Positions 2,546 through 19,161 of a stretch of DNA of 20,000 nt are shown one piece after another (position 1 is the stretch's first letter; the number at the start of each line of letters is the position of its first letter). Both the position numbers and the translations under genes were made by a program. This DNA comes from an uncultured virus (IMG/VR IMGVR_UViG_2799112477_000001). Its lineage: Duplodnaviria; Heunggongvirae; Uroviricota; Caudoviricetes. The DNA lies in the IMG/VR virus record IMGVR_UViG_2799112477_000001; one strand, 5' to 3'. The notes below the pieces were generated by a model. It saw only the letters and a program-made list of their open reading frames with translations, had not been told where the DNA came from and did not search any database.

Positions 2546-3367
2546 TCAATTCGTTTTCCAGCTTGATCCTGTCACATAGTCTATGGATATCCCTGGCTCT
2601 ACGTTATAGCAGAAAACGTTGATATGAAACTTCGTTCCTCTGCTCTCTACGTCGCCTGCTTCGATATGTACGCCTCTACAGACCAGCTCGTTGCCTTTGA
2701 AGACAGGAGTTGCACGGTATAGGATCCTTCCGCCCTTTCTCAGGAGCCAGTTCTGCGTAGCTTTCTCCGCATAGGACAGCTGACCATCGACATTCATATA
2801 TTCAGTGCCTGTGACAAGGTTCCTCGGATCATCTGTAATCCCTGAGACCGCATACATTATGAGGTGGCAGCGGTTGTACAGCCATCCGCTGTTTCTGCTG
2901 ATTAGGTCAGGATATTGCGCCTGGTTCCAGCCTGAAGGAGTGACATGCGACAAGTCAAAGTCTCTTTCCCCTTCCGGTATCGTGTCTTTTCCAAGTGAAG
3001 CTTCACACGCACCGCATCTGCCGAGCCAGTCGAGCTCGGACAATTCTATATACATAGATTCTGCTTTCTTGTAATCCTCTTCCGTGAATTCCGGTTTGTT
3101 CCCGTTCAGGACATAGGTTGGTGTACCGGAGTATTCAGGGATAGAATCCAGAAGGCTGCTCTTTTCTGTCTGCATTGGAGCGGGTCTGTTTTCTGCCTGT
3201 TCAGCAGATTTGTCTATATCCTGTATGCTTCCGAACTCACCGGGAGGATCCACTATCACAGAGTGCTGTCGCATCGTATATATGCCCGCACCAATGACTA
3301 GCAGCATAATCAGCAGCATTCTTACTGTTCTGTATAATTTTTCTTTCTTGCTGTATGGATATTTCAT
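2546..3367 (-). CDS. membrane-anchored DNA/RNA non-specific endonuclease (EndA/DNA-entry nuclease-like, ββα-Me)
   Basis: N-terminal basic plus hydrophobic anchor; NRCHLI (DRGH-type) motif, NLVTGTxxMN, YRATPVF and YNVEPG, all typical of this family. Confidence 0.85.
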   Translation of the reverse strand: MKYPYSKKEKLYRTVRMLLIMLLVIGAGIYTMRQHSVIVDPPGEFGSIQDIDKSAEQAENRPAPMQTEKSSLLDSIPEYSGTPTYVLNGNKPEFTEEDYKKAESMYIELSELDWLGRCGACEASLGKDTIPEGERDFDLSHVTPSGWNQAQYPDLISRNSGWLYNRCHLIMYAVSGITDDPRNLVTGTEYMNVDGQLSYAEKATQNWLLRKGGRILYRATPVFKGNELVCRGVHIEAGDVESRGTKFHINVFCYNVEPGISIDYVTGSSWKTN

Positions 3368-3403: not shown

Positions 3404-3566
3404 ATCTACATATTATATATAGTAGAGATTTTTGTTTTGAGTCGGTAAATACTTCAGCACCGGCAGACCTTCCCGGAAGTAGAGATTTTGCGACAAGCAA
3501 CAAGCACAAGTACCTATCTACACCATGCGCATATATATGATATCCCTGCGCAGGCAAGTAGAGATT
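3404..3566 (-). CRISPR. atypical Cas12a mini-array 1: three handle units (3516-3566, 3447-3487 degenerate, 3404-3430)
   Basis: Minus-strand AATCTCTACT...GTAGAT handles (canonical Cas12a is AATTTCTACT...GTAGAT) with loops of 36 nt and 12 nt. The middle copy ends GTATTT but still pairs TACTTC/GAAGTA. The array begins 35 nt after the cas12a stop. First spacer region is AGGTACTTGTGCTTGTTGCTTGTCGCAA. Confidence 0.75.
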
Positions 3567-3600: not shown

Positions 3601-6600
3601 TTACTGTTCCTGTATATGCTGCAGCCAGTCGCTGCTTGATATAGACAGAGATACAGGTTTTGTCGTTTTGTCCCCTGCCCGTGCTGTCAGAGCTTCTTCT
3701 GACGCGCTCTTGATTCTATTGACTATCATCAGCCCCTTGCGGGCAATGTTGTATGCGCTATTATCGTCCTTTGGCGCTTCGAAGAAGCTTCCCGTGGCCA
3801 GATCCATGATTGGTGAAACGATATTTGATCCTGTGCGCATCTGTACGATGAGGCCAAAGAGCGCAAGAAGTTCTTCGTGGAAACTCTTATCGGTCATGCT
3901 GCACAGAGCTTCTCTGAGGTCCTCTGAGCTTTCATCGATACCGTGGTCGTTCAGAAGGCCTGTGATCGACTCCGTCAGATTGATAGGCTTATAGTTTATG
4001 CCTTTATCTCCTCTGACCGCACGGATCCGCTCTCCATGTGAGAAAACGCTCCATTTCATCCTGCAGCCATCGAGCTGCTTCAGCCTGTTCTCGCTTATAA
4101 AGTAGCTGTAGTCGAAGTCGAATCTGTACGCCCTGACCTCTTCGTCGTAAACGATCCTGTCAAAGGCGTGCCAGAAGGCTTTGGCTGCGGGGATGTTTGT
4201 GTATCTGGTATCAAACAGGTTCACAAATCCTGTATTCGAATCTATTTCTGTGATCTTCCACGGCGAAACGTAGAAGATAAAACCTGTCTGTTTTCCGATC
4301 TTGTCGAAGCTTTCGAACGGAGCTGTCAGCTGATAAGCTCTGTAGATCCCGCCCGGTTCATCCGGTTCAGCGGATTTGTTTACAAGCAGATTCAGCTTGC
4401 TTATAAGGCGTGCTTCAAGCTGCTGATATACAGCTTTTTCTATCTTCTGGCGCTGCTGTTTGAACCCGAGGCTCATATCCTCGATCGCTATTACTGCGTC
4501 GTATTTGAGCATAAGGTCGGCAAGGATGCGCACGACCTGCCCGATGTAGCCGTCTTTAAGCTGCTTTATGCCCTCTACTGATTCCCAGCTCTTTCTTTCA
4601 GCCATACGCTGGAGTTCTCTGCTTTCAAGGAGCTTCGCATAGTCGGTCTTCTTAGGCTTACTGCCGGAAGCCTGCTCTATGACGTTGAGAGATCTGTTCT
4701 CTAAAACATTTCCCTTTGGGTCAAGGACGCAGAGCTGGATGAGATTGTTTTCTCCCCTGCTCACACCGATGACATGTACGTTGTCTTCCTTCTTTATAGC
4801 GAGTCTCGCTTCGGTGTTGATAAAGCTGAAATTCGTTGCGGAAGCATTTATGGTGATCGGCACGTTGAGCTGAAATTTGTTTACCGTGAATCTGCGGTCC
4901 TTTACGATGTCATACTTAAGGACCTTGCTCCTCTTCGGATTCAGAGGGTTCTTTGCTGCTACTACATCGCCTGCCCTGTGGATCACGGCATCTTCCGGTT
5001 TTATGGATGCCTGTCTGAAGAAAAGTTCTGCTCCTCCGTTGAGTCTGCAGATCGGGGGCTCCCCGTTTCTAGGATCAAACAGTGCTCTCCAGTAAATAGT
5101 TGACAGGTCCGGTTTGCCGTATGCCTTGTTGCTGAAATCCCTGTGCCAGATTTCGAAGAGATAGAGCTGCCCGTTCTCTACAAGCTCGTTTACGACAGCT
5201 GTATCTATCGGTCTGTACTTTAGCGAATATCCTGCTGTTTCTACTTCACGGAAGAAGCATGAGATATCCTCGTAAGCAGCAGTTTCCGAGAATTTAAAGG
5301 AGAACATCTGCCATGCGTCCGTGACTGCGATACAGTCCTTGTAGAAGTCGATGAGCCTGTGGCAGTCTTCAAGGCTGAAGTCTTTTCCCTTCTTGAAGGT
5401 GCCACTCTTGTAAATGCGCATGATGTCTTCTGAAGGTTTGTAGTTTTCGATCCCCTTTCTGGAGAAGATAACGTGCGGAAGAGCTTTGTTGGCTCCGGTC
5501 AGCAGGTTGTACCTCATCTTCATATAGACATCGTCCGTTACTGCTTCAGGGACCTTTTTGAACAGGTTGCCCTGCCCTTTTGCAATGATCCCAAGATAGT
5601 ATTTGCCGTCTTTCAGAAGCAGCGTTCCGAGCTTTGCGCTTTCAACGCTTTCCGCCCAGCCGTCGAGGAGGAGGGAAGAACCGAAGTTGAGTTTGACCTT
5701 TTCAGTCGTATATATCTTGCCTGAAAGGTAGTTTCTGGTTTTGTTGTAGATGGAAGTAACAGCATTCAGCGCGTCCATCAGCGGCTCATAATCTGTGTAG
5801 AATGCGAGATCTTTGTCTCCCGTCCTGACGGAAAGGTTCTCTGTAGAGCGTCTGATGTTCAGGGCCGCGTCAAGGTATTCCTTTATAACGGCTTTTGCCT
5901 TGCTGCTGCTTTTGAGGCTTCTTGGCTCTGAGCCTCTCATCTGAAGGAATGCGAGGAGGTCTCTTCTTGCCAGATCGAAAGACATCTTGCAGAAGCCTGC
6001 CTCGCCCGTTATGTATGTCGACAGCTTCCCGTCTATTCCCGGAATGATATCCAGTTCTCCGATGCTGTAATACTCTTTCTTTCTCAGCGCTGTGTCTTTC
6101 TGCTTACGGTATGCTGCGGAACGGCGCCTCTTTTCGGTCACATCCTGTTCGAAATCGTATTTATCCCCGAGAAGATCTTTCATCTTACTCCAGGATCCGA
6201 GCATCTTATTCGATATGTCATTCAGAGCTTTTGTCCTGATGTATATTCCGTTAAGATCGTAGCCTCCTATGGAGCTTATGAGGGCCGTCATGCCTTCCGC
6301 TGCAGGCCTGAAGAGCTCATCCAGCGCGAGGAGCGCGTCTATTACCTCATCGTCTTCTCTGAACGCTTCAGGGATGAACGAGAGTGTCGTTCTGTCGCTC
6401 AGGATCTGCTTTTTCAGAGGTGTCAGCTTGGGAAGACGGTCTTCTTTGCTTTCAGCTGCCTGATTTGCCAGGTTGATGTATTCGTTCAGGCCTTTTATCT
6501 TAGTCCCGTCTTCTTTTGCAAAGCCGCCGATAAGCTGGTTGTATCTGTCTATGCCGCTCTGGGCCATTACCTTGCTGAAGCCTTCAACGGAGAAGGAGTC

Positions 6601-7254
6601 AGACATGCTGTCATCGCCAAGCAGTGCAGCTAGTTCTTTTTCAGCTGTCTTTATATTGTCCGGGAGAACTTCTGAGATCCTCGTGAATTTCCTGTGGTTA
6701 TCGAGGAAGATAGGCAGGTTGTCGTCTATGATCCTGCCGGCGACCGAACCACTCTTTCCGGAAGCGTCATATATGAGCCTCCTGTTATTGTGGTATCCGG
6801 TGAAGTAAGATGCGAATCCTTCAAAGCTGCTTATAGCTGCCATTGCTTCTGCGTCATTCTCATACATAGCAGGAAGAAGCTTGTCGAAGAGATCCGCCTT
6901 AAAGAGGTCGTTATAGCCTTTTGCGCCTGTGAGATCATTTGATATATTCTCAGTCATGCGCCTTGCGAGGTCATTCATTTCCTCTCTGGCCTCATCGCCC
7001 TTTTCCGGGTGGAAGTAGAGATCTGCATATGCGGTAAGATCGCTCCCGAGGGAAAAGCCATTAAGAGTATTTTCTATGTGGGTTTTGTGGAGCCCGTCTA
7101 TGAGCTTCTGGACTTTCTTCTTTTCCTCTGCCCGTCTTGTGTCCTCTTCTATGATCCCCCGCTCTTCGATGTATTCGAGGGTCTTCCCCTGCGGGATCAG
7201 GCCGAATCTAAGCGTTTTGCTGATCTTGTAAAGATTTGTGAAATTCTCGTACAT
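3601..7254 (-). CDS. cas12a: type V-A CRISPR effector Cas12a (Cpf1), predicted DNase-dead (RuvC-I Asp to Ser)
   Basis: N-terminal FTNLYKISKTLRFGLIPQGKTLE, KGLNEYINL, LKKQILSD, YNKTRNYL, GQLYLFEIWHRDFS, LNGGAELFFR, KDRRFT, KQTGFIFYV and AYNIARKG. RuvC-I reads GVSRGENNL (S832); E925 and D1163 are retained. Confidence 0.95.
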   Translation of the reverse strand: MYENFTNLYKISKTLRFGLIPQGKTLEYIEERGIIEEDTRRAEEKKKVQKLIDGLHKTHIENTLNGFSLGSDLTAYADLYFHPEKGDEAREEMNDLARRMTENISNDLTGAKGYNDLFKADLFDKLLPAMYENDAEAMAAISSFEGFASYFTGYHNNRRLIYDASGKSGSVAGRIIDDNLPIFLDNHRKFTRISEVLPDNIKTAEKELAALLGDDSMSDSFSVEGFSKVMAQSGIDRYNQLIGGFAKEDGTKIKGLNEYINLANQAAESKEDRLPKLTPLKKQILSDRTTLSFIPEAFREDDEVIDALLALDELFRPAAEGMTALISSIGGYDLNGIYIRTKALNDISNKMLGSWSKMKDLLGDKYDFEQDVTEKRRRSAAYRKQKDTALRKKEYYSIGELDIIPGIDGKLSTYITGEAGFCKMSFDLARRDLLAFLQMRGSEPRSLKSSSKAKAVIKEYLDAALNIRRSTENLSVRTGDKDLAFYTDYEPLMDALNAVTSIYNKTRNYLSGKIYTTEKVKLNFGSSLLLDGWAESVESAKLGTLLLKDGKYYLGIIAKGQGNLFKKVPEAVTDDVYMKMRYNLLTGANKALPHVIFSRKGIENYKPSEDIMRIYKSGTFKKGKDFSLEDCHRLIDFYKDCIAVTDAWQMFSFKFSETAAYEDISCFFREVETAGYSLKYRPIDTAVVNELVENGQLYLFEIWHRDFSNKAYGKPDLSTIYWRALFDPRNGEPPICRLNGGAELFFRQASIKPEDAVIHRAGDVVAAKNPLNPKRSKVLKYDIVKDRRFTVNKFQLNVPITINASATNFSFINTEARLAIKKEDNVHVIGVSRGENNLIQLCVLDPKGNVLENRSLNVIEQASGSKPKKTDYAKLLESRELQRMAERKSWESVEGIKQLKDGYIGQVVRILADLMLKYDAVIAIEDMSLGFKQQRQKIEKAVYQQLEARLISKLNLLVNKSAEPDEPGGIYRAYQLTAPFESFDKIGKQTGFIFYVSPWKITEIDSNTGFVNLFDTRYTNIPAAKAFWHAFDRIVYDEEVRAYRFDFDYSYFISENRLKQLDGCRMKWSVFSHGERIRAVRGDKGINYKPINLTESITGLLNDHGIDESSEDLREALCSMTDKSFHEELLALFGLIVQMRTGSNIVSPIMDLATGSFFEAPKDDNSAYNIARKGLMIVNRIKSASEEALTARAGDKTTKPVSLSISSSDWLQHIQEQ

Positions 7255-7279
7255 GGTGTGGCTGGTTCCTTTCGCTTAT

Positions 7280-7320
7280 AAAAAAGTGCGGTCCGTCTGT
7301 TCCGGGGCTCCGCACTTTTG
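7280..7320 (-). terminator. terminator-like hairpin in the cas12a 5' leader
   Basis: AAAAGTGCGG...CCGCACTTTTTT on the minus strand, about 25 nt upstream of the cas12a ATG. Confidence 0.55.
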
Positions 7321-7447
7321 TCTGTTTTTATTATTAAACGAAAGGAGCCGGGGGAAATGCCTAAAAATCGGTGACTGCATTTCCTCCGGCTTAACACCAT
7401 GAACACCATATCACAAAGAAAGGAATATGGTTCATGTTTCAATGAGT

Positions 7448-7476
7448 ATTATAGCAGTAGATAACGCAGATTGCCA
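7448..7476 (-). promoter_or_regulatory. extended -10 promoter upstream of the cas12a leader
   Basis: TGGCAA-N17-TATAAT with a TGn extension (TGCTATAAT). Confidence 0.65.
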
Positions 7477-7517
7477 CTTCTTTTTTGTGACGGTGCTGTT
7501 GCACTTAAGGTGATTGT

Positions 7518-7973
7518 TTAATGGCTCGGATGATAGTAGCCGAGCTCGATTGCAATGAAGTAGATCGCCCTCTTTCTGTATTTACTGAGCGTTCGCGGCG
7601 TAATCTCCAGATTTTCGCGCGAATATCCATAGACAAGGTTGTTTGTAAGGACATCTTTCAGTTTTTTGCCGGTGCGATTGTCTCTGCATGTCCTTGCTGC
7701 CTTGTATATGCCTTCGTGAATCGCTTTGATCTGCGCCTCTGCTGCTCTCTGTTCCCGCTGTTTATCTACGTGAGCTATAGCGATATTCTCTGTCTTTCTG
7801 GAGATGCTGTTTGTAGGTGAGACCGCTATTCCTCCGTACTGAGGGACCAGACCGTCCATATAGTCGTCGAGAGACCACGGAAGCTGCTCCGCTTTCTTCT
7901 CAAGCGAGGCATAGTTCTTCAGCAGATCCATAACCTTTTGCACTATATCTTTCGGCAGATGATAAGTCGTCAT
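7518..7973 (-). CDS. putative phage transcriptional regulator, ArpU/RinA-like (C-terminal sigma-region-4-like HTH)
   Basis: 151 aa. N-terminal LKNY, 'ISRKTENIAI', a coiled segment and C-terminal 'ITPRTLSKYRKRAIYFIAIELG' resemble the ArpU/RinA architecture. Confidence 0.55.
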   Translation of the reverse strand: MTTYHLPKDIVQKVMDLLKNYASLEKKAEQLPWSLDDYMDGLVPQYGGIAVSPTNSISRKTENIAIAHVDKQREQRAAEAQIKAIHEGIYKAARTCRDNRTGKKLKDVLTNNLVYGYSRENLEITPRTLSKYRKRAIYFIAIELGYYHPSH

Positions 7974-8263
7974 CAGAGGTCCTCTTCCTCGACTATTTCG
8001 AACTCTTCAGCGTTATCGATCTTGACACGCCTGATGAAATCTTCAGGGTAAGGTGTCCCGGTCAGAATGTAGGCGACCTGCGCGATCTGACTCAGGCGGA
8101 GCTTGCTGGGATCACGCAGAAATATCCCCACATAATGTGGGTTTACGTGCATCGCTTCAGCAAGGGCCTTCTTTGTAACCCCTGCGTCGAACATCGCGTC
8201 TTTGACCTTCTCAACATCCAGTTCAAGATCGTATTCCTGATTGGCAAGGCTGTTAATTCCCAT
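7973..8263 (-). CDS. Xre/Cro-type helix-turn-helix protein
   Basis: 'GVTKKALAEAMHVNPHYVGIFLRDPSKLRLSQIAQVAYIL' HTH pattern. Probable start MGINS at 8263 (ORF track extends to 8344). The stop overlaps the next start. Confidence 0.7.
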   Translation of the reverse strand: MGINSLANQEYDLELDVEKVKDAMFDAGVTKKALAEAMHVNPHYVGIFLRDPSKLRLSQIAQVAYILTGTPYPEDFIRRVKIDNAEEFEIVEEEDL

Positions 8264-8504
8264 GTTCGCCCTCTTTTCTGCTTTAGCTTGAAAATATATT
8301 TCACTCTTTAGTCGATTGTAGCATATAGAATGCACCGAATGCAACAGTATGTGACACGGAAGTGATATCAGCTTGACCTAATATTGCAACCGCCGAGGCG
8401 GGGAATGTTAAATTCATAGGTGTTGATTATAATTAAGATTATGAGGAAGGCGTAGATGAGTTGGAATGACTTCTGTTGGTGACAGACAGGCGGTATCGGT
8501 TAAC

Positions 8505-9618: not shown

Positions 9619-12600
9619 CTACCTCCCCCCTGCTGCTATCCTTGCCGCTTCTTTGAATACCGCATCTGCCAGAACTGACATTATCGCATTGTACTTGGAC
9701 TCATCCTCAAACAGCGATTCATAAGTTTCCTGTGCTTCTACATAGCTGTTCTGAGCAGCCTCTCCGAATGCCTTCGGAAATATGCTCTGTCCAAAGATCT
9801 GCCTGTCTGAAGTGCTTGCAATCTTCATCAGCTTATCGTCAGCAGTGAATATAGGATACAGATTCGAAATGAGCACTTTATCGCCCTCTGTAAGCTGTCC
9901 GGCAAACTTCTCGTTGATTTTCTCGATTACTTCATCAAGGGGCTTCAGCGGGTCAAGGCCCATCGCGCTCTTGCTCTGAGGCGGCTCATATACACCCTTG
10001 CCATCCTCCAAAGATATTGAACCTTCGAAGGTCTTGTTGAGTTTGTAGTATTCAAGCTTGAGCTTGTTCTCGATATCTACCATCTTGACAGTCTCGACTG
10101 GGAGAAGCTTCAGAAGGTACGAGCAGAATACATATTCCTTATGAAGGTCCGCATCAAACATCCTGACTACCTGAGAAATGTATCCGTACCACCTTATAAG
10201 GCTCCTCAGCTGTCTTCTGAACTGATACCTGTCATCCGGATCCAGGGTATTATATCTGTCTGCCACTGGCTTAAGGATACTCGTCATCTTGCCCATAGAC
10301 CTGTCATCCTGTTTGCCAGGCTTGTAGTATTCATCAGCGAACTTCTCTATATCCGTATCATCATAAACCTTGAAATTTCGGAGTTCTCTCTGAGTCTGAT
10401 AGATCAGGTCAGCATTGACTTCCTGCTCAAGATATGTTTCCTGATAAAACGGGTTGAACGCTTCAGTGATATCATCTGCCGTATTGATGAAATCAATTAT
10501 AAGCGTATCATTCTTACCTGGACAGGTTCTGTTAAGCCTTGACAGAGTCTGTACAGCCTTTACGCCCTTGAGCTTCTTGTCCACGATCATCGTATGGAGG
10601 TAAGGCTCATCGAAGCCGGTCTGGAACTTTTCTGCTACGATAAGCATTCCGAAGTTATCATGGAACTCTTCCTTTGTCTGAGATTCGGAGATGGCAGAAC
10701 CGTCTCTGCGTTTGTTCAGCTTCGACTCTGTGTATTCATCACCGTTCTCCGGGACAGACCCTGAGAATGCAACAAGAACATCTACATCATCATAGCCATT
10801 CTTCTCGATATAATCCTTCACTGCGAAGTAATACTTTACAGCTGCAGGCCTCGAAGATGTAACGACCATCATCTTGCCCTTGCCGCCTATCTTGTGCCTT
10901 GTGACTTCTCTGAACGTTTCTACGATGATCGGTGTCTTCTGGCTGATATTATACGGATGCAGCTCCTCAAATTTTCTGATGACCTTTGCTGCCTTACTCG
11001 AAGGCACATCCGGGTTGTCTCTTGTAGTATTGGCTATCTTGAAGCAGGTATCGTAAGTCATGTAGTTCTGAAGGACATCAAGAATGAAGCCTTCTTCAAT
11101 TGCCTGCTTCATGCTGTAAATGTGGAATGGATGATATGATCCGTCAGGATACTCAGTTCCGAACATCTCAAGAGTCTTGTCCTTCGGTGTAGCCGTGAAG
11201 GCGAAGAATGACAGATTCTTATGCTTTCCGTGTGAGATGAGTTCCTGAATCAGTTTATTATCTGGATCGAACTTCTCTTCCTCGATTGCCTCATATTCCG
11301 CATATTCTCTCAGCGCTTCCTCTGTATCAGCAAGTGCCGTCTTGAGTTTCATAGCTGCGGAACCGGTCTGTGAAGAATGTGCTTCGTCTACAATGACAGC
11401 ATAATTTTTGCCATCGGCTTTATCTACTTCCTGATAGATGACTGGAAACTTCTGAAGCGTTGTAACGATGATCCTCTTTCCATCATTAATAGCGTTTTTG
11501 AGATCCTGTGAGGACTTACCCTCACCGATGGTCTCTACAGAGCCTATGGTGTGGTCAAAGCATGAAATAGTATTCTGCAGCTGTGCATCGAGGACAGTTC
11601 TGTCAGTTACTACAATTACACTCTTGAATATTGCATTATCGTCGATGTCGTGAAGTGACGCTAATCTGTAAGCGGTCCATGCTATGGAGTTCGACTTGCC
11701 CGAGCCTGCACTGTGCTGGATAAGGTAGTTATGCCCTGCTCCGTTAGCAGAAACGTCTGCGATGAGCTTTCTCACGCAGTCAAGCTGATGGAACCTCGGA
11801 AAAATGAGGTTCTGCTTCTTCACGACCTTCTCGTTGCCGTGTTTATCTACGGTTTTGTCTGTCTTCACTTCAAGGTGTATGAACTTTTTGATGACGTCCA
11901 TCATACTGTCTTTAGTAAAGACGTTCTCCCAAAGATACGCTGTAGGATATCCGTTTGGATTCGGAGGGTTGCCCGCTCCGCCGTCGTTACCGGCTCCGTT
12001 TGAGCCCTGATTGAACGGCAGGAAGTATGTGTCACCCTTAGCAAGTTTAGTTGTCATCCAAACTTCGGTCTGATCGACTGCAAAGTATCCGAGTATCCTC
12101 TTATTGAACTGGAAACATATCTCGGAAGGATCTCTGTCATACATCCACTGTCTTTTGCTGTTCTCTACATCCTGTCCTGTGTACTGGTTCTTCAGTTCGA
12201 ATGCGAATACCGGAATGCCATTTACAGCAAGCATCATGTCCACAGAGTTATTATTGACTGCTGAATAACGCCACTGTCTCACCACGTTTATGACATTGGC
12301 ATCATACAGCTTCTGTGCGGTCCTGTTTAAGCGCGATTCAGGCTTGAAATAGCAGACATGGAAAGTTATACCTCTGTGCTTGAAACCATGTCTCAGAACG
12401 GAAATAAGGCCATCTCTGTCGCTTGCATTATTGAAGGCGATACAGAACTTCTTTTCCGGATCGATCTTGTTCTGCATGACAAATCTTGCCCACTCCTTTG
12501 GCTGCGTAGCCTTGATGAAGTCGGTCAGTGTCTGCTTATACACTCCTAGCTTTGGATCATAGACGTCAGAAGTATTTGTATAACCGCCGTAATGCAGAAG

Positions 12601-12654
12601 TGATGACTCTATATCCTGCTCAAAGCGCTTCTCATTAGTCTGGTCTATTGCCAT
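9619..12654 (-). CDS. hsdR: type I restriction endonuclease subunit R
   Basis: D...NGIP...ELKN nuclease motif, Walker [34 protein letters not shown]. Confidence 0.95.
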
Positions 12655-14756
12655 CAGTTACCCTCTTTCTTTTTGTTATCTCTTGCACTGTATACGAAAT
12701 CACTACGATCAAGGCCATATCTATCAACCAGTGCGCGTATAATACACATAATAGTTGCCGCAGAGAACCCTGAACTTTCATAGATTTCGGAATCAGCCAC
12801 CTTCAAATTGCTGCCCCATGTCAGCTTGTAGTCATACGAAAACATCACTACACTGGACCATTCAAGAATATTCTCGTTACTTCTTGCCATGCTCTCTATC
12901 AGGCTAGGATCAAGCTCATAAAGCTTGTCTATGAAGATCCTGAGCATCTCTGCGAAGTTTGATGCCTTGATGCGTTCTCCCATAAATACGAAGTAGTTTG
13001 GTGCTTTATAAGTCGCATCCTCAGGATTTTCGCAGGTGTACTCTTTATATCTAGGATCAGCGAATGATACTACTTTCTCAGGCTTATCATATCTGAACAT
13101 GTCAAGAATCATCTTTGACAGTCTTTCTGCTCTTGCCTCGATCGTATCCTTGTTCCATGCTGTAAGACCTTTGACGTCTTTGTTCAGGATCACTACTTTA
13201 GTTCCCTTTTCATCAAGCATGTCAAGTTTCTGAAGGAACGGTCTGTCGCCCAGTTCACTGTTATGCCCGGTAAGAGTAAGGTTGCCCAGTGTATGCAGAT
13301 ATGTGTTTCTTACATTTTCATAGTCGGTCCCGAGCATATTCTGCCAGTTTGTAGACAGATTCTTATTCTGAGGCATAATGTGCTCGATAGTCAGATTATC
13401 TGTAAGTATTTGTTCCTTACTCTGATTTTCTATAGATGTGAGCAGGAATCTGCAAAGAGCATATTTGTGATAAAGGTCGTTCTTCTTCAGTGCTTCAAGG
13501 AATGTTAGATCTCGAGGCATCTCATCTCTGGAAGTCAACTGGGTCAGGAATGAAACTATCGAATCATAGTAATGTTCCTTGTTCTCCGGTACATTGAATA
13601 CTCTTGTATAGAGTGTCTTGTACAGTCCTCTTAATGAGTTCGAAGCGATTTCACACATGGTGCGGCGTACACTATATGAAACAAGAAGTCTTAAGGTCTT
13701 AACAAGCTCCTTCTCGCTTATGACCTCATTCAGGAAATCATCAAATACTCTATAAAGGAACAGGAATGCGGTTGTCTGATTCAGTGCCTGCAAGTTTCCG
13801 AGAAGGCTGTTGACCTCATCGCTGTATTTGCTGCTTCCATGCATAAATGAATGATACAGTTCTGCATAATGCAGAAGCTCCTGCAGCATGGTTTCGTTAT
13901 CGTATCCGCCGTCTTCATAGAGTCCCTTGAACTGGTCGTAGGCGTATTTCTCCTTCGCAAACTCATCGAGTTTCAGATTCAGATACGAGTAGAAGAATTC
14001 GTTTCGATAGTCTTTCTTGACAAGCTGCTCGATCTTGATCCAGTATTCTTCGAACAGTCTGTCCTGATCGACGTCAGTCATGAGAACGAAGTTCCGGATC
14101 TTGTCTGCAAGGCTGAGAGGAACACCTGTGGAATTGATTCTCTCAAATATTTCCTGAGCATTATCATCGGGACCGAGCTGAATTCTTGCGCAAGTAAGTC
14201 TGCCGATACCATTGAAAATATCCTTTATCCTGAGATCAGGGTCCTTCTCCATCGCTCTTTTTATGAGAGTGCAGAATAGCTCGTAGTTGTGCCAGATTCC
14301 GGATGATCTGTCAACCTCATCGAATTTATTGTCCATGATGAGCATAAGCTGCCTGTTATCTGACTTGACAGGCTTAAGTTTGAGCTTAGTTGCTTCTGTA
14401 ACATCGAAGGAGTCGTATTTGTCCTTATTGATAATAGTGTCTAGGATGGCTTCCTTATCGTATTTCTTATCTGCAAGATCAAGGAGCGCCTTCAGGAGCA
14501 GATAAATGGTCGTAAGTCTCTGCTGTCCGTCAATGATTACATATGACTGGATATTAAGACCGTTGTTCAATGGTGCGAAGACAACAGATCCACAGAAGTG
14601 CTGCTTATCCCTTTTGTAAGCATTGACGATATCCTCAAACAGTTTCTTGCAGTCGTCCTCTGACCACTCATAGTTACGCTGATATACAGGGATAGCGTAC
14701 TGCCTCTTATTAGGTTCGATGAAGTCGTTAATTATTCTTCCAGGAGCAATATCCAT
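12654..14756 (-). CDS. DUF262 + DUF1524 (HNH) protein, GmrSD/RloF-like modification-dependent nuclease
   Basis: [20 protein letters not shown] and IFERINSTG (DUF262); TIEHIMPQ...LGNLTL...N (HNH, DUF1524); extra C-terminal domain. Confidence 0.9.
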
Positions 14757-16021
14757 TAATTCGGTACCTCCTTCTTGCCTGTAAGATATTCGTATATGAG
14801 GGATTTTTTATATGACTCGAGTTCAGCAATAAGCTGCTCTTTCTTTTCTATGACCCTATCAATTTCAGAGCACTTATCATCCAAATAGCGAGATATTTCT
14901 GTTTGTTCCTCTTTATTCGGTATAAGCACAGGCATACTCTTAAGTAGCGGTTGCCCTAAACTTGCCCGAGTCACGATATTCATTTGTTTTGCAAGGAAAA
15001 TTCTATGGTGACTGCTTCGGAAATAATACTTTGAATATCCAATATCCAAAGTATTATTTATTGGCCGTAGTCTAATCAGAAATCCGGCAAACGTCGCATG
15101 AGGTATGGTTTCCTCACAAACACTAGAAAAACCTACTTCCTCTATAGTTTCAGATGTTCGTGTAAAGAAAATATCGCCTTTTTTGACTGAATACAGTGCT
15201 TGCTCTGCCTCACTCGACTGAATCAAACCACTTAATGCTTTCGGCAATGCAATATTTTTATAGACATCTCCATAACTTACAAAAGGAAAACCCTCTCCGA
15301 AATATTCCCCACCTTTACTAATTCCATTCTGCAATACTCCTATATGGCGCAATTTACAAACGTTCCATGATTCGGGAATATCACCTATCCACTCAATCCC
15401 GCTATCCTTCATCTCACGATTCGGGCGGATTCCTTTTGTAACCGCCTGAGTTATAACAGACTGCTTGAGTTTCTTGTATTCTTCGATGGATGCGCGGGTC
15501 TTTTCAATAACTGCATCTATACTGGAGCATTCTGTATTAAGGAACGATACGATGCGGGCCTGCTCTTTCTCAGATGGCCAAGCGATAACAAGTTTGTTCC
15601 ATAGCGATGCGGACCAAGTAGCAAGACTCACTGAATCAACAACAACTGAAGAAATACTCTGCTGTAAGCTATAACGCACAAACGCTCTGTTAATACTTGG
15701 TTTTATACATGCTCGAATAATATGGTCAGTATAACAAGCTGACTTCGAAGGTAGATATACATATGGTGTTCCGTTTCTTGACAAGAGCAAATCATTTTCG
15801 TTTGTATATTTCCAGTCAGGAAAGTCTTTATACTTCGTTCTTATTGGTTCAATACCGGCAGTGTAAAAAACAATATCGCTCTCATCGGAGGACCACAGTT
15901 CTTTGTCTATCCCCTCACCAGTATTCATTCCATTGTGTAAATACTTAAATCGGATTGTTCCCCAGTCATTTGGTATTTGTCCGATCCAGTCGACTCCACT
16001 CTTTTTCATTTCCCTCGCCAT
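14756..16021 (-). CDS. hsdS: type I R-M specificity subunit S
   Basis: Two TRDs with repeated conserved regions (EMKKSGVDWIGQIP / EMKDSGIEWIGDIP; EQARI / EQTEI; KQSVITQAVTKG / KKSLIYEYLTGK). Confidence 0.95.
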   Translation of the reverse strand: MAREMKKSGVDWIGQIPNDWGTIRFKYLHNGMNTGEGIDKELWSSDESDIVFYTAGIEPIRTKYKDFPDWKYTNENDLLLSRNGTPYVYLPSKSACYTDHIIRACIKPSINRAFVRYSLQQSISSVVVDSVSLATWSASLWNKLVIAWPSEKEQARIVSFLNTECSSIDAVIEKTRASIEEYKKLKQSVITQAVTKGIRPNREMKDSGIEWIGDIPESWNVCKLRHIGVLQNGISKGGEYFGEGFPFVSYGDVYKNIALPKALSGLIQSSEAEQALYSVKKGDIFFTRTSETIEEVGFSSVCEETIPHATFAGFLIRLRPINNTLDIGYSKYYFRSSHHRIFLAKQMNIVTRASLGQPLLKSMPVLIPNKEEQTEISRYLDDKCSEIDRVIEKKEQLIAELESYKKSLIYEYLTGKKEVPN

Positions 16022-16023
16022 TC

Positions 16024-17781
16024 TTACGCCTCCTTATGGAACAGAGACTGCAGGCTTTCAGAGATTTCTGACTCAAGGTCTGTAATTCTATCCATAATAT
16101 CCTCTACCGCTTCAGGGGCCTGGTACTCGTAGAAAAATCTCGTCATTGGGATTTCATAGCCGACCTTTGTTTTTGCCTTATCTACCCATGCATCTTGTGC
16201 ATATGGAAGGACTTCTCTTTTGAAATACTCGTCTATGTCTTCCTTCAGCGGCACATTTTCGGTATCTCTGAGACTTGAATCAGCGACTGGCTTACCTTTC
16301 TTAAGGACAATGACGCCATTTTCATCTCGCTGCGGTCTCTCTACAACGATTTTTCTGTAACCAAAGTCTTCGCCATCGAAGATCTTGCTTTCGCAGTAAA
16401 TTCCATCTTTATCACCATAGATCTTTCCATCCTGGAATTCGCCTACGGCTGTTACGATCAGATTCCTGCAATAATCAGTGATGTCGTTGCGTTTGTTTCC
16501 GATTGATTTGCGTCTCGGTTCACAGCAATGGGATGCATCAATAAGCTGAACCTTACCGGCTTTATATTCAGGTTTCGCCTTATCAATGACCCACACATAC
16601 GTACTGATACCTGTATTCATAAAAGCATCTGTGCTGAGCTGAATGATGCAATCAAGATAGTCGTTCTCTATAAGGAACTGCCTGATGTTAGACGGCCCGC
16701 TTCCGGCATCTCCGGAAAATAGAGGCGAACCATTCTGGATTATAGCCATCCTGCCGTCATCGGTAAGCTTGTTAACACCATTGAGTACGAAAAGCTGTTG
16801 CCCGTCTGATATCTTAGGCAGCCCCGGAGCAAATCTTCCCTTCTCTCCAAGCTTGTGCTCCGCTTCTACAGCCTTTTGTTCACGCTTCCAGTCAATGCCG
16901 AATGGAGGATTACTTATGATGTACTGGAAGTGGAATCCCTTAAATTTATCATCGGATAAGGTATCTCCGAATCTCATGTTCTCAGGATCCCCGCCACGTA
17001 TCAGAGTATCTGCTTTCGCAATAGCGTATGTAGACGGATTTATCTCCTGCCCGAAGGTTGTTACTACAGCATCCTTGTTAAGGGCCAGAATTCGCTCTGT
17101 CATGCACGAAAGCATCTGAGAGGTACCCATTGTCATATCATAGACTGTAACGTTCTCCTCACCAATATCCTTGTCTACAAGCAGCACATCTGTCATGAGG
17201 TATATTATGTCTCTGCTTGTGAAATGCGCTCCGGCCTGCTCATCGTAGCTTTCAGAGAATCTTCTGACCAGCTCCTCAAATATGTATCCGCAGTCAACAG
17301 CACTGACCTTGTCTGGTCCGAGATAGCCCTTAGCTGAATTGAATTCCTGTATTACAAGGTACAGAGTGTTGCTTTCCACCATCCTCTTGATGATATTGTC
17401 GAACTCAAACTTGGACAGGATGTCCTGCACGTTCGGTGAAAATCCTGCAACATAATCTCTGAAGTTCATCTCGATATTCTCAGGATCAGCAAGCAAAGAA
17501 TCAAATGTATACTTGCTTGTATTATAAAAGCTGTAGCCGGATGCTCTTGTGAGAAATCCGTCTATTACAGCCAGCTTCTGGACTTTCTTATACTGTTCCT
17601 GCACTTTTTCATGTGTCGGCAGCAAACAATCATGGAATCTCTTGATCACCGTCATCGGAAGAATAACCAGGCCGTACTCGTGAGGTTTGAACGGACCTGC
17701 AAGATGAGTGGCAACATTCCATATGACAGCTGCTTTTTCAGATATGTTTACTCCTACATTGGATACTTTATTCTCGCTCAT
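16024..17781 (-). CDS. hsdM: type I R-M N6-adenine methyltransferase subunit M
   Basis: AGAHFTSRD, motif I VYDMTMGTSQM, GQEIN, motif IV NPPF. Confidence 0.95.
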   Translation of the reverse strand: MSENKVSNVGVNISEKAAVIWNVATHLAGPFKPHEYGLVILPMTVIKRFHDCLLPTHEKVQEQYKKVQKLAVIDGFLTRASGYSFYNTSKYTFDSLLADPENIEMNFRDYVAGFSPNVQDILSKFEFDNIIKRMVESNTLYLVIQEFNSAKGYLGPDKVSAVDCGYIFEELVRRFSESYDEQAGAHFTSRDIIYLMTDVLLVDKDIGEENVTVYDMTMGTSQMLSCMTERILALNKDAVVTTFGQEINPSTYAIAKADTLIRGGDPENMRFGDTLSDDKFKGFHFQYIISNPPFGIDWKREQKAVEAEHKLGEKGRFAPGLPKISDGQQLFVLNGVNKLTDDGRMAIIQNGSPLFSGDAGSGPSNIRQFLIENDYLDCIIQLSTDAFMNTGISTYVWVIDKAKPEYKAGKVQLIDASHCCEPRRKSIGNKRNDITDYCRNLIVTAVGEFQDGKIYGDKDGIYCESKIFDGEDFGYRKIVVERPQRDENGVIVLKKGKPVADSSLRDTENVPLKEDIDEYFKREVLPYAQDAWVDKAKTKVGYEIPMTRFFYEYQAPEAVEDIMDRITDLESEISESLQSLFHKEA

Positions 17782-18887: not shown

Positions 18888-18897
18888 GCCGGGCATC

Positions 18898-18942
18898 AAA
18901 AAAACAGCAGGGCGGACGATATGTCTTCCCTGCTGCTGTTTT
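18898..18942. terminator. bidirectional intrinsic terminator between the ydbC pair and mini-array 2
   Basis: Stem CAGCAGGG/CCCTGCTG with a T7 tail on the minus strand and a TTTT tail on the plus strand. Confidence 0.75.
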
Positions 18943-18997: not shown

Positions 18998-19099
18998 ATC
19001 TACATTTTTCATATCTAGTAGAGATTTTGTTTCAGCGTTTCAGCAAGATTCTCAATGTCGGTAGCCGGGGATCATTTTATCTACGCTGTAGTAGAGATT
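18998..19099 (-). CRISPR. orphan Cas12a mini-array 2: two handle units (19079-19099, 18998-19026)
   Basis: TAATCTCTACTACAGCGTAGAT (near canonical, 6-nt loop) and AATCTCTACTAGATATGAAAAATGTAGAT (14-nt loop). The following sequences are AAAATGATCCCCGGCTACCGACATTG and TCGTCATCTATGAAAAGTCTGACACG. Confidence 0.75.
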
Positions 19100-19132: not shown

Positions 19133-19161
19133 ATCTTAGCATGAGATAACCACATTGACAA
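19133..19161 (-). promoter_or_regulatory. promoter of mini-array 2
   Basis: TTGTCA-N17-TAAGAT with TGn extension, about 35 nt upstream of the first handle. Confidence 0.6.

Follow-up and report, generated by a model that had tools for sequence, protein, structure and literature searches.

A candidate DNase-dead type V-A system with loop-variable guide handles, borne on a mobile element

What becomes of a type V-A CRISPR system when its guide RNAs keep only their ends in common, and what would such guides be for? The question is raised by a stretch of 20,000 nucleotides (nt) recorded as an uncultured virus of the Caudoviricetes (IMG/VR record IMGVR_UViG_2799112477_000001), the whole of which is called the window here, in which a cas12a gene is directly followed by CRISPR RNA (crRNA) handles with constant ends and loops of widely differing length. 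The window is part of a contig of the genome that was searched, that of an uncultured bacterium, which is 86% complete. The reading favoured here, with a confidence somewhat above even, is that of an adaptation-less type V-A variant carried by a mobile element and predicted to be DNase-dead, acting by binding only.

Handles with constant ends and variable loops

The guide-related features of the window all lie on the minus strand and fall into two groups, array A next to cas12a and array B at the far end:

3516..3566 (-), crRNA handle unit 1: AAUC-UCUAC and GUAGAU enclosing a loop of 36 nt in which an inner hairpin forms
3488..3515 (-), spacer that follows unit 1 and serves as its guide, ~28 nt
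3478..3487 (-), truncated repeat, 'unit 2': 5' half only (AATCTCTACT), without GTAGAT
3447..3480 (-), rpoC-derived fragment, 34 nt, sense strand, reading NFREGLPVLKY in frame
3404..3430 (-), crRNA handle unit 3, with a 12-nt AU loop
3368..3403 (-), trailing 'guide' of unit 3, which doubles as the 5' leader of the next gene (open reading frame, ORF, from 3367)
19079..19099 (-), crRNA handle B1, with a 6-nt loop
19027..19078 (-), spacer of array B, 52 nt
18998..19026 (-), crRNA handle B2, with a 14-nt loop

Array A lies directly 3' of cas12a, separated from it by 35 nt, and its three AATCTCTACT starts fall at 3566, 3487 and 3430 of the minus strand; the exact motif occurs five times in the window. 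A sequence-only reading of this DNA had described conserved handle ends around loops of 36, 12, 6 and 14 nt, and the description holds on the minus strand far above chance, the pattern TCTACT-N(3-33)-GTAGAT being found three times in the window against 0.07 expected, a count reached by none of 200 shuffles. The sequence common to the window units is AATCTCTACT...GTAGAT and nothing more, with GTAGAT absent from unit 2, which runs from 3487 on the minus strand as AATCTCTACT and then TCCGGGAAGGTCTGCCGGTGCTGAAGTATTT. Two further details of that reading were borne out: the U-to-C change at the fourth handle position, with AATC rather than AATT in all five window units, and the TGCGCA/TGCGCA pair within the 36-nt loop of unit 1, a loop that forms an inner hairpin in the fold. 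Unit 1 folds at -17.4 kcal/mol with its handle stem closed, and 4 of 200 shuffles are as stable. When units are folded alone the 5-bp UCUAC/GUAGA stem closes in seven of eight, the exception being unit 2, and an inner hairpin sits atop the handle stem both in unit 1 and in the 25-nt loop of a solo copy elsewhere on the contig. The gene for an endonuclease begins 37 nt past the last handle of array A, and its leader would be that handle's 'guide'.

The solo copy is one of five further handle copies on the window's contig, at a distance of about 50 kb upstream (locus L009), where a single unit with a structured loop of 25 nt is accompanied by a canonical mini-array in which four repeats of 35 nt, each with a 5-nt loop, alternate with spacers of 31, 29 and 30 nt. 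The second repeat of the mini-array is split by an insertion sequence (IS) with TA at both junctions:

L009:11877-13076 (contig C42, ~94.55-95.75 kb), IS element in the mini-array, with a DDE_3/HTH (helix-turn-helix) transposase

A genome-wide search for AATCTCTACT-N(3-60)-GTAGAT gave eight matches, all on the window's contig, and none for the backwards control, and a relaxed handle scan of the other contigs returned 70 matches against 189 in the reversed control, hence no credible extra copies. The contig tally is eight intact handles, one copy split by the IS and one truncated copy, distributed over four sites (three units near cas12a, two in array B, the solo unit and the four-repeat array); AATCTCTACT is identical in 10/10 copies and the loops span 5-36 nt. 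Upstream of the handle the solo unit and the mini-array copies have ...ATGTAATCTCTACT in common, and the window copies share only an A-run before AATCTCTACT, their repeats being in effect cut to the mature handle of about 20 nt. In a MAFFT alignment of the ten units the 3' halves could not be placed because of the loops, and homology of the long loops is not claimed. Outside this genome the handle pattern has 113 loci in IMG/VR, with a single match each among the 80 listed, and these were taken as chance. A half-handle in a complete genome of another genus of the family (L231, G642:C1 ~1565198-1565221) matches the 5' part and loop of B2 at 24 of 25 positions, without GTAGAT; it may be a remnant, and it was set aside as not significant over 340 genomes.

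A typical V-A array consists of near-identical repeats of about 36 nt and spacers of about 26-32 nt, a format that the L009 mini-array fits and from which both window arrays differ. A gap-free repeat finder resolves the window arrays into nothing more than repeats of 11-13 nt, irregularly spaced (57, 79 and 73 nt), and it is therefore plausible that CRISPR finders would overlook them. An Rfam scan matched tRNAs only and left the CRISPR-DR family unmatched.

The units had also been taken for fixed guide genes no longer made by adaptation. For the second half of that claim, the Cas1, Cas2 and Cas4 families (PF01867, PF09827, PF01930) have no match in the 86%-complete genome, the controls being positive; the canonical mini-array on the contig nevertheless implies past adaptation, which therefore built part of the repertoire at some time. 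Fixity itself had to be abandoned. Two metagenome contigs (L021/L022), whose Cas12a is 98% identical to that of the window (24/1217 residues different), carry the window array with one unit more, located after unit 1 and ahead of the middle unit: its handle has a loop of 5 nt and its spacer is 27 nt long. From upstream of unit 1 through unit 3 and the sequence trailing it, the arrays are otherwise the same, the alignment of 346 columns showing besides this unit a single different base upstream of unit 1 and a few differing positions just ahead of the next gene's start codon. Recombination between the 5' halves of handles has therefore removed 47 nt from the window array.

The middle unit, unit 2, had been described as a handle with an alternative stem, TACTTC/GAAGTA, and a CCGG/CCGG hairpin. 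Both pairings are present, inside a fragment of rpoC, and the fold of the unit is no better than that of shuffles (z = 0.09), so that the pairings stand and the evolved handle does not. When the array was compared by BLAST with about 350 genomes of the same family, matches recurred at query 121-154, which is window 3480-3447; the segment was matched in 15/350 genomes at E <= 0.05 (ranges read off the BLAST table), the best match, in genome G132, being 30/34 identical with an E of 1.1e-5 per genome. At all four loci examined the match sits in rpoC at the conserved beta' NFREGLSVLEYF site, and the genome's own rpoC is 26/34 identical to the fragment. The unit is therefore the 5' half of a repeat (AATCTCTAC) to which a fragment derived from rpoC, lying on the crRNA strand, has been joined, with the loop and GTAGAT missing and presumably also the first part of the spacer; because ACT stands at both possible deletion end points, it is plausible that a microhomology deletion made it. 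The fragment departs from the family's rpoC by two non-synonymous changes, and it is these two bases that make the pairings complete; with no more than two changes the observation is anecdotal. Disabled handles are frequent for self-matching spacers, and we read the unit as a putative captured host-gene spacer with a disabled handle. The rpoC piece fused to a broken repeat would then be a concrete case of such a capture, and the present host's rpoC, at 26/34, is too divergent for a target.

A Cas12a clade with serine at RuvC motif I

A point beyond the sequence-only reading is the effector, which lacks the catalytic Asp of RuvC motif I; the role of the guides therefore likely changes.

3601..7254 (-), cas12a, 1217 amino acids (aa), with Ser832 in RuvC-I where the catalytic Asp is expected

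The protein is identified as Cas12a by TIGR04330 (1093 bits; cut-off 300), by five Cpf1 Pfam domains and by PADLOC, whose best models are all Cas12a, and it has the REC1, REC2, PI, RuvC and Nuc domains. Its RuvC motif I is GVSRGEN, which aligns to LbCas12a chains as vigvSrgeN versus vigiDrgeR. GVSRGE is common to 10/10 of the nearest homologs (50-98% identity), and Ser occupies the catalytic position in 11/11 members of the clade (49-98% pairwise identity), with the motif II Glu and the motif III Asp in all; the catalytic triad of the window protein and its ten nearest homologs is Ser-Glu-Asp, not Asp-Glu-Asp. In a wider alignment of 218 full-length homologs the RuvC-I position holds D in 187, S in 17, N in 5, T in 4, K in 2, H in 2 and A in 1. 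A neighbouring Arg of the pocket, present in 182/218 sequences overall, is N or S in 11/11 clade members. In the Nuc domain the Arg (R1140) is found in 10/11 members and a conserved Asp three residues further on is not kept.

Other parts of the protein differ in what they have retained. The residues of the pre-crRNA RNase, a His and two Lys in WED-III, which we take to be H759, K768 and K785 here, correspond in the alignment to H, K and K in LbCas12a and are kept in 10/11 clade members. In two alignment columns that we assume to hold the lysines reading the protospacer adjacent motif (PAM), K is found in 0/11 and 1/11 clade members versus 167/207 and 150/207 other homologs, the clade having V/T/Q/R and H at these positions. 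The RuvC-I Ser and the loss of the pocket Arg suggest a protein that binds without cutting; from the Ser together with the loss of both PAM lysines, binding without cutting is predicted at a PAM that is probably other than TTTV. The gene itself is under purifying selection, with a ratio of non-synonymous to synonymous substitution (dN/dS) of 0.28 against the 98%-identical relative.

In a FastTree phylogeny of the 218 sequences with midpoint root, the Ser clade has a support of 1.0 and is nested in a clade of 31 sequences (support 0.97), 25 of which are without D-E-D, with S, N, T, H, K and A all occurring at RuvC-I; over the whole tree at least 14 changes of state are needed. A library of representatives at 50% identity contains the clade as one representative (57% identity), the next match being at 45%. 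No further members came from a single-protein search of the genome contig collection, a search with the clade alignment gave only 32-38% relatives in genome contigs and none in viral contigs, and none were found in 200 genomes of the family or 400 of the order.

Loop heterogeneity and the RuvC-I residue were compared over 90 related loci. Of these, 85 have D as that residue, S and N occur at 2 loci each and K at 1, and 52 of the 90 have three or more handles. Among the loci with three or more handles, more than one loop length occurs at 0/49 of those bearing Asp versus 3/3 of those without it, and single-base loop variants at 4/49 Asp-bearing loci. The pattern of invariant ends and varied loops recurs in a second, independent lineage, L064, which has Lys at RuvC-I and 18 repeats starting about 110 nt past the gene: AATTTCTAC and GTAGAT are invariant, seven loop variants of 4-8 nt occur, and the 5' part of the repeat varies. 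Its eight upstream ORFs include one resolvase and no Cas family. The AATC handle was found at no locus with matching handles outside L021/L022 among the 90 examined. In another lineage, L068/L069, with Asn at RuvC-I, a single handle lies 55 nt past the gene, and the first 9 nt of its guide match, beside TTTA, a site 64 nt upstream of the lineage's own start codon (0.001 expected). This is the arrangement published for CreR, a CreR-like circuit of self-repression whose enzyme is in this case predicted to be dead:

L069:6237-6290 and L069:2450, handle and promoter match of L068/L069

In these few lineages, loss of the RuvC Asp accompanies small, old or heterogeneous guide sets.

The mechanism proposed is that of a derived type V-A system carried on an integrated mobile element. 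Guides would be supplied by at least ten handle copies in four contig sites, adaptation genes lacking. The retained RNase pocket would cut pre-crRNA just 5' of AAUC-UCUAC, the long-loop RNAs would be processed and loaded along with the others, and the Ser-bearing Cas12a, its DNase activity presumably lost, would bind DNA under RNA guidance without cutting it and might so silence rival mobile DNA, as Cas12c and Cas12m do by binding. Since repeats would no longer be copied in, selection would be limited to the parts held by Cas12a, AAUCUCUACU and GUAGAU, and drift, expansion or deletion would go unchecked in the exposed loop, in the repeat's 5' part and in spacer length.

Expression signals and the surrounding element

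The signals that might govern expression, and the neighbouring genes, are as follows:

7255..7477 (-), promoter-like site and leader of cas12a, GTGGCA-18-TATAAT, score 10/12
19133..19161 (-), promoter-like site upstream of array B, TTGTCA-17-TAAGAT extended by TG (by consensus match alone)
18897..18938 (-), terminator-like hairpin and U-run after array B, seen in the fold
2546..3367 (-), non-specific endonuclease gene, 273 aa; Pfam Endonuclea_NS_2, E 2.9e-14
7518..7973 (-), ORF upstream of cas12a, 151 aa, resembling phage transcriptional activators
7973-8344 (-), ORF, 123 aa, HTH-regulator-like (PHROG 1373)
9619-17781 (-), type I restriction-modification operon hsdM, hsdS, hsdR, between cas12a and array B
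L009:1263-5203, L010:5142-6491 and L009:7606-8733, RRXRR / TnpB-like genes

The 188-nt leader of cas12a (7255-7442) folds into three hairpins at -65.8 kcal/mol (z = -6.2; 0/200 shuffles as stable), one of them terminator-like and placed just before the ribosome-binding site, with an anti-Shine-Dalgarno pairing and no match in Rfam; from this fold the leader may be an attenuator or riboregulator. The hairpin after array B was missed by a simple terminator scan, its loop being longer than 8 nt. Array A is without a promoter-like or terminator-like site of its own and may be transcribed by read-through from cas12a. In two bovine-gut RNA libraries of a single study, contigs extend over parts of cas12a and of the ORFs upstream of it; this is a weak sign of expression, as DNA carry-over is possible and transcription is not proven.

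The 151-aa ORF matches PHROG 36 (2.5e-6) and PHROG 248 (4.4e-5), and also TIGR01637 ArpU at 6.7e-4, below the cut-off; it has only three homologs in 5.8 billion proteins, and its AlphaFold model has a pLDDT (predicted local distance difference test) of 38. The N-terminus of the endonuclease is a hydrophobic stretch, as read by eye from the DNA. In the restriction-modification operon a GmrSD-type restriction gene is inserted between hsdS and hsdR. The surrounding 80 kb or so hold an integrase, a resolvase, a topoisomerase, a PcfJ-like protein, TnpB, three RRXRR proteins and many orphan ORFs, and no second cas12a occurs in the genome, which has one. The same element that carries the Ser-bearing Cas12a thus encodes three proteins with an RRXRR domain (449, 487 and 449 aa) and one TnpB-like protein. 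ARAGORN reports two tRNA-like genes (308-386 and 2050-2124, both on the minus strand) with odd anticodon loops, 'gcaa' with four bases in one and 'ac' with two in the other, which adjoin normal tRNA-Leu and tRNA-Gln genes.

Guide targets, rival explanations and known systems

Several observations weigh against a functional, binding-only system. The matches to host, phage and plasmid DNA that the sequence-only reading had proposed to look for did not materialise: no guide has a credible target in its own genome, in 50,697 phage records, in 72,556 plasmid records or in about 350 genomes of the family, and three guides searched as exact 20-mers have no match in IMG/VR. The motif II Glu is present in 218/218 homologs and the motif III Asp in 210/218, which is odd for a functionless pocket, and because both are strictly kept some altered catalysis in the Ser-bearing Cas12a is possible. 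The 98%-identical relative has Arg at the RNase His position (H759R). Decay is visible in the arrays, which have lost a unit, carry an IS within one repeat and have another repeat cut short. The three non-Asp loci behind the association with loop length amount to two independent lineages, L021 and L022 being near-identical, and DNA context was read for the window and L021/L022, the nine clade members at 50-56% identity being represented at the protein level only. Neither array is covered among the RNA-library contigs listed, a result that is uninformative either way.

Single guides fared no differently. That of unit 1 has no match in its own genome, phages, plasmids or IMG/VR, the 52-nt spacer of array B has no credible target, and a search of plasmids and phages with the guides gave nothing at E <= 1. 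Guide starts compared with the cas12a promoter (>=9 of 10 positions) gave no match save one of low complexity without a PAM. Among the candidates set aside, phage matches had E values of 3-9 and were attributed to chance, as was the best site in the own genome (3 mismatches beside GTTG in an ABC-transporter gene, 19/31 overall), and matches in genomes of the family across repeat-spacer borders (G633, G563, G179, G045) were rejected as lying in coding sequence. An 11-nt stretch at the start of the array B guide has a match next to TTTG at G000:C57:17085 (+), with about 0.14 such matches expected over all guides; the gene at this place is small and Flp-pilin-like by eye.

It is conceivable, if unlikely, that the locus is a decaying remnant in which neutral decay accounts alike for the RuvC change, for the lack of adaptation genes and for the raggedness of the repeats, with no part still functional. 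The repeat-spacer unit lost relative to L021/L022, the IS in a repeat of the canonical array, the truncated repeat fused to the rpoC fragment, the failure to find guide targets and the H759R change in the relative would all be natural under such decay. It is harder to reconcile with a full-length ORF, with a Ser fixed in 11/11 proteins of 49-98% identity that keep the RNase triad, with a dN/dS of 0.28 and with handle ends that are exact in eight copies despite differing loops and flanks; the RNA-library contigs over cas12a also speak, weakly, against it.

The enzyme might instead still be a nuclease, with Ser-Glu-Asp or a borrowed acid doing the work and loop variation as tolerated noise in small arrays, which we likewise hold to be improbable. 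Within the clade the Glu of motif II and the Asp of motif III are invariant and R1140 is present in 10/11 members, as such an enzyme should show, and loops are known to tolerate change (PMC11031708). The pocket Arg has nonetheless been lost, with N or S in 11/11 clade members versus R in 182/218, and at RuvC-I there has been drift in the surrounding clade, to S, N, T, H, K and A, as is expected after catalysis has been given up. Swapping this very Asp is the standard route to a dead Cas12a, which also counts against continued cutting.

A counter-defence decoy, in which the dead Cas12a, the surplus handles or both would soak up or misdirect the type V-A machinery of a host, seems quite unlikely. 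The location on a mobile element with integrase, resolvase, topoisomerase and PcfJ would suit it, and published precedents exist in crRNA-like viral RNAs (10.1101/2024.10.29.618823) and in a phage Cas9 with a dead RuvC (PMC10910872); yet the genome is without a second cas12a, the AAUC handle occurs only with this clade among the 90 loci examined, and the cas12a promoter is unmatched by the guides.

The inserted loops had attracted attention as possible protein-recruiting or regulatory modules. On one such reading the dead Cas12a would be a natural programmable regulator whose structured loops dock a partner, the 151-aa activator-like protein being the candidate, and different guide genes would carry different outputs, by analogy a Cas12a counterpart of dCas12f-sigmaE; we consider this very unlikely. 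Least credible of all is an RNA-guided gene regulator in which the dead Cas12a, alone or with the 151-aa protein, is steered by fixed guides to turn genes off or on: the adjacent ORF matches phage transcriptional activator families, RNA-guided transcription by dCas12f-sigmaE is a precedent (PMC13472631) and the guide of L068/L069, an independent Asp-to-Asn lineage, matches the promoter region of its own cas12a over 9 nt beside TTTA, yet guide matches in the window's own genome are not beyond chance, the rpoC piece is without a whole handle and only 26/34 identical to the genome's own rpoC, and the model of the 151-aa partner has a pLDDT of 38.

The favoured reading, a binding-only type V-A variant on a mobile element, would have several consequences. 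Engineered gene silencing relies heavily on dead Cas12a combined with compact arrays, and the locus suggests that the same design has been reached by nature. If this is true, type V-A gains a branch that interferes by binding, with its own PAM and handle variant; the repeats provide natural evidence on which parts are indispensable (AAUCUCUACU, GUAGAU) as against a loop that may bear cargo (up to 36 nt); and array finders and annotation pipelines would systematically overlook such loci. Loss of the RuvC Asp together with repeat heterogeneity offers a simple sequence signature for finding further such systems.

With the canonical V-A systems of Fn, As and Lb Cas12a the locus shares the protein family, the domain order, a UCUAC/GUAGA handle that is free of trans-activating crRNA, and the positions of the RNase triad. 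It differs from them in the RuvC-I Ser, in both PAM-lysine positions, in that cas4-cas1-cas2 were not found, in the C at the fourth handle base and in gene-adjoining repeats that are handle-only, with loops of 5-36 nt. Inactivated RuvC domains have been described for V-C, V-M, V-K, V-O and V-P, and the list of the 2025 classification, in the part considered here, contains no inactivated V-A variant (PMC12669027); a survey of Cas12a clades gives the catalytic residues as conserved in all its subtypes, in the portion that we cite (PMC12375029). No paper describing a natural dead Cas12a was found by full-text search, supplements being outside the scope of that search. Among DNase-free effectors Cas12c and Cas12m (V-O and V-P are also listed, PMC12669027) offer the predicted likeness of a guide processed by the effector and DNA bound uncut; they are other protein families, and the window protein is Cas12a by every profile.

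For the short, off-array units the closest parallels are CreR and standalone repeats in V-A loci (bioRxiv 10.1101/2023.03.03.530964; 10.1101/2024.10.29.618823), which are likewise repeat-like and handle-only, and some of which have a terminator of their own, as array B has here. Their hallmark, a promoter match of about 9-10 nt beside a PAM, is absent in the window and present in L068/L069, and the published CreR RNAs serve a nuclease-active Cas12a. Viral crRNA-like RNAs that hijack Cas12a (bioRxiv 10.1101/2024.10.29.618823) and a phage Cas9 with a dead RuvC (PMC10910872) have also been reported. Solitary repeats and RNA anti-CRISPRs of mobile elements lack a cognate cas gene, whereas unit 1 of the window adjoins cas12a at 35 nt. 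With dCas12f-sigmaE (PMC13472631) and TldR (PMC10705468) the locus has in common an effector with a dead RuvC, here a predicted one, a few fixed guides and a transcription-factor-like neighbour; those systems belong to other families and have known targets, whereas here targets were not found and the partnership is putative. The handle loop of Cas12a is solvent-exposed, and ErCas12a tolerated loop extensions of 5 nt, of 10 nt and with MS2 (PMC11031708). The engineered dCas12a constructs used for CRISPR interference in the same work combine a dead RuvC-I, handle-only repeats and loop insertions; they are man-made, and the window presents the three features as a natural co-occurrence.

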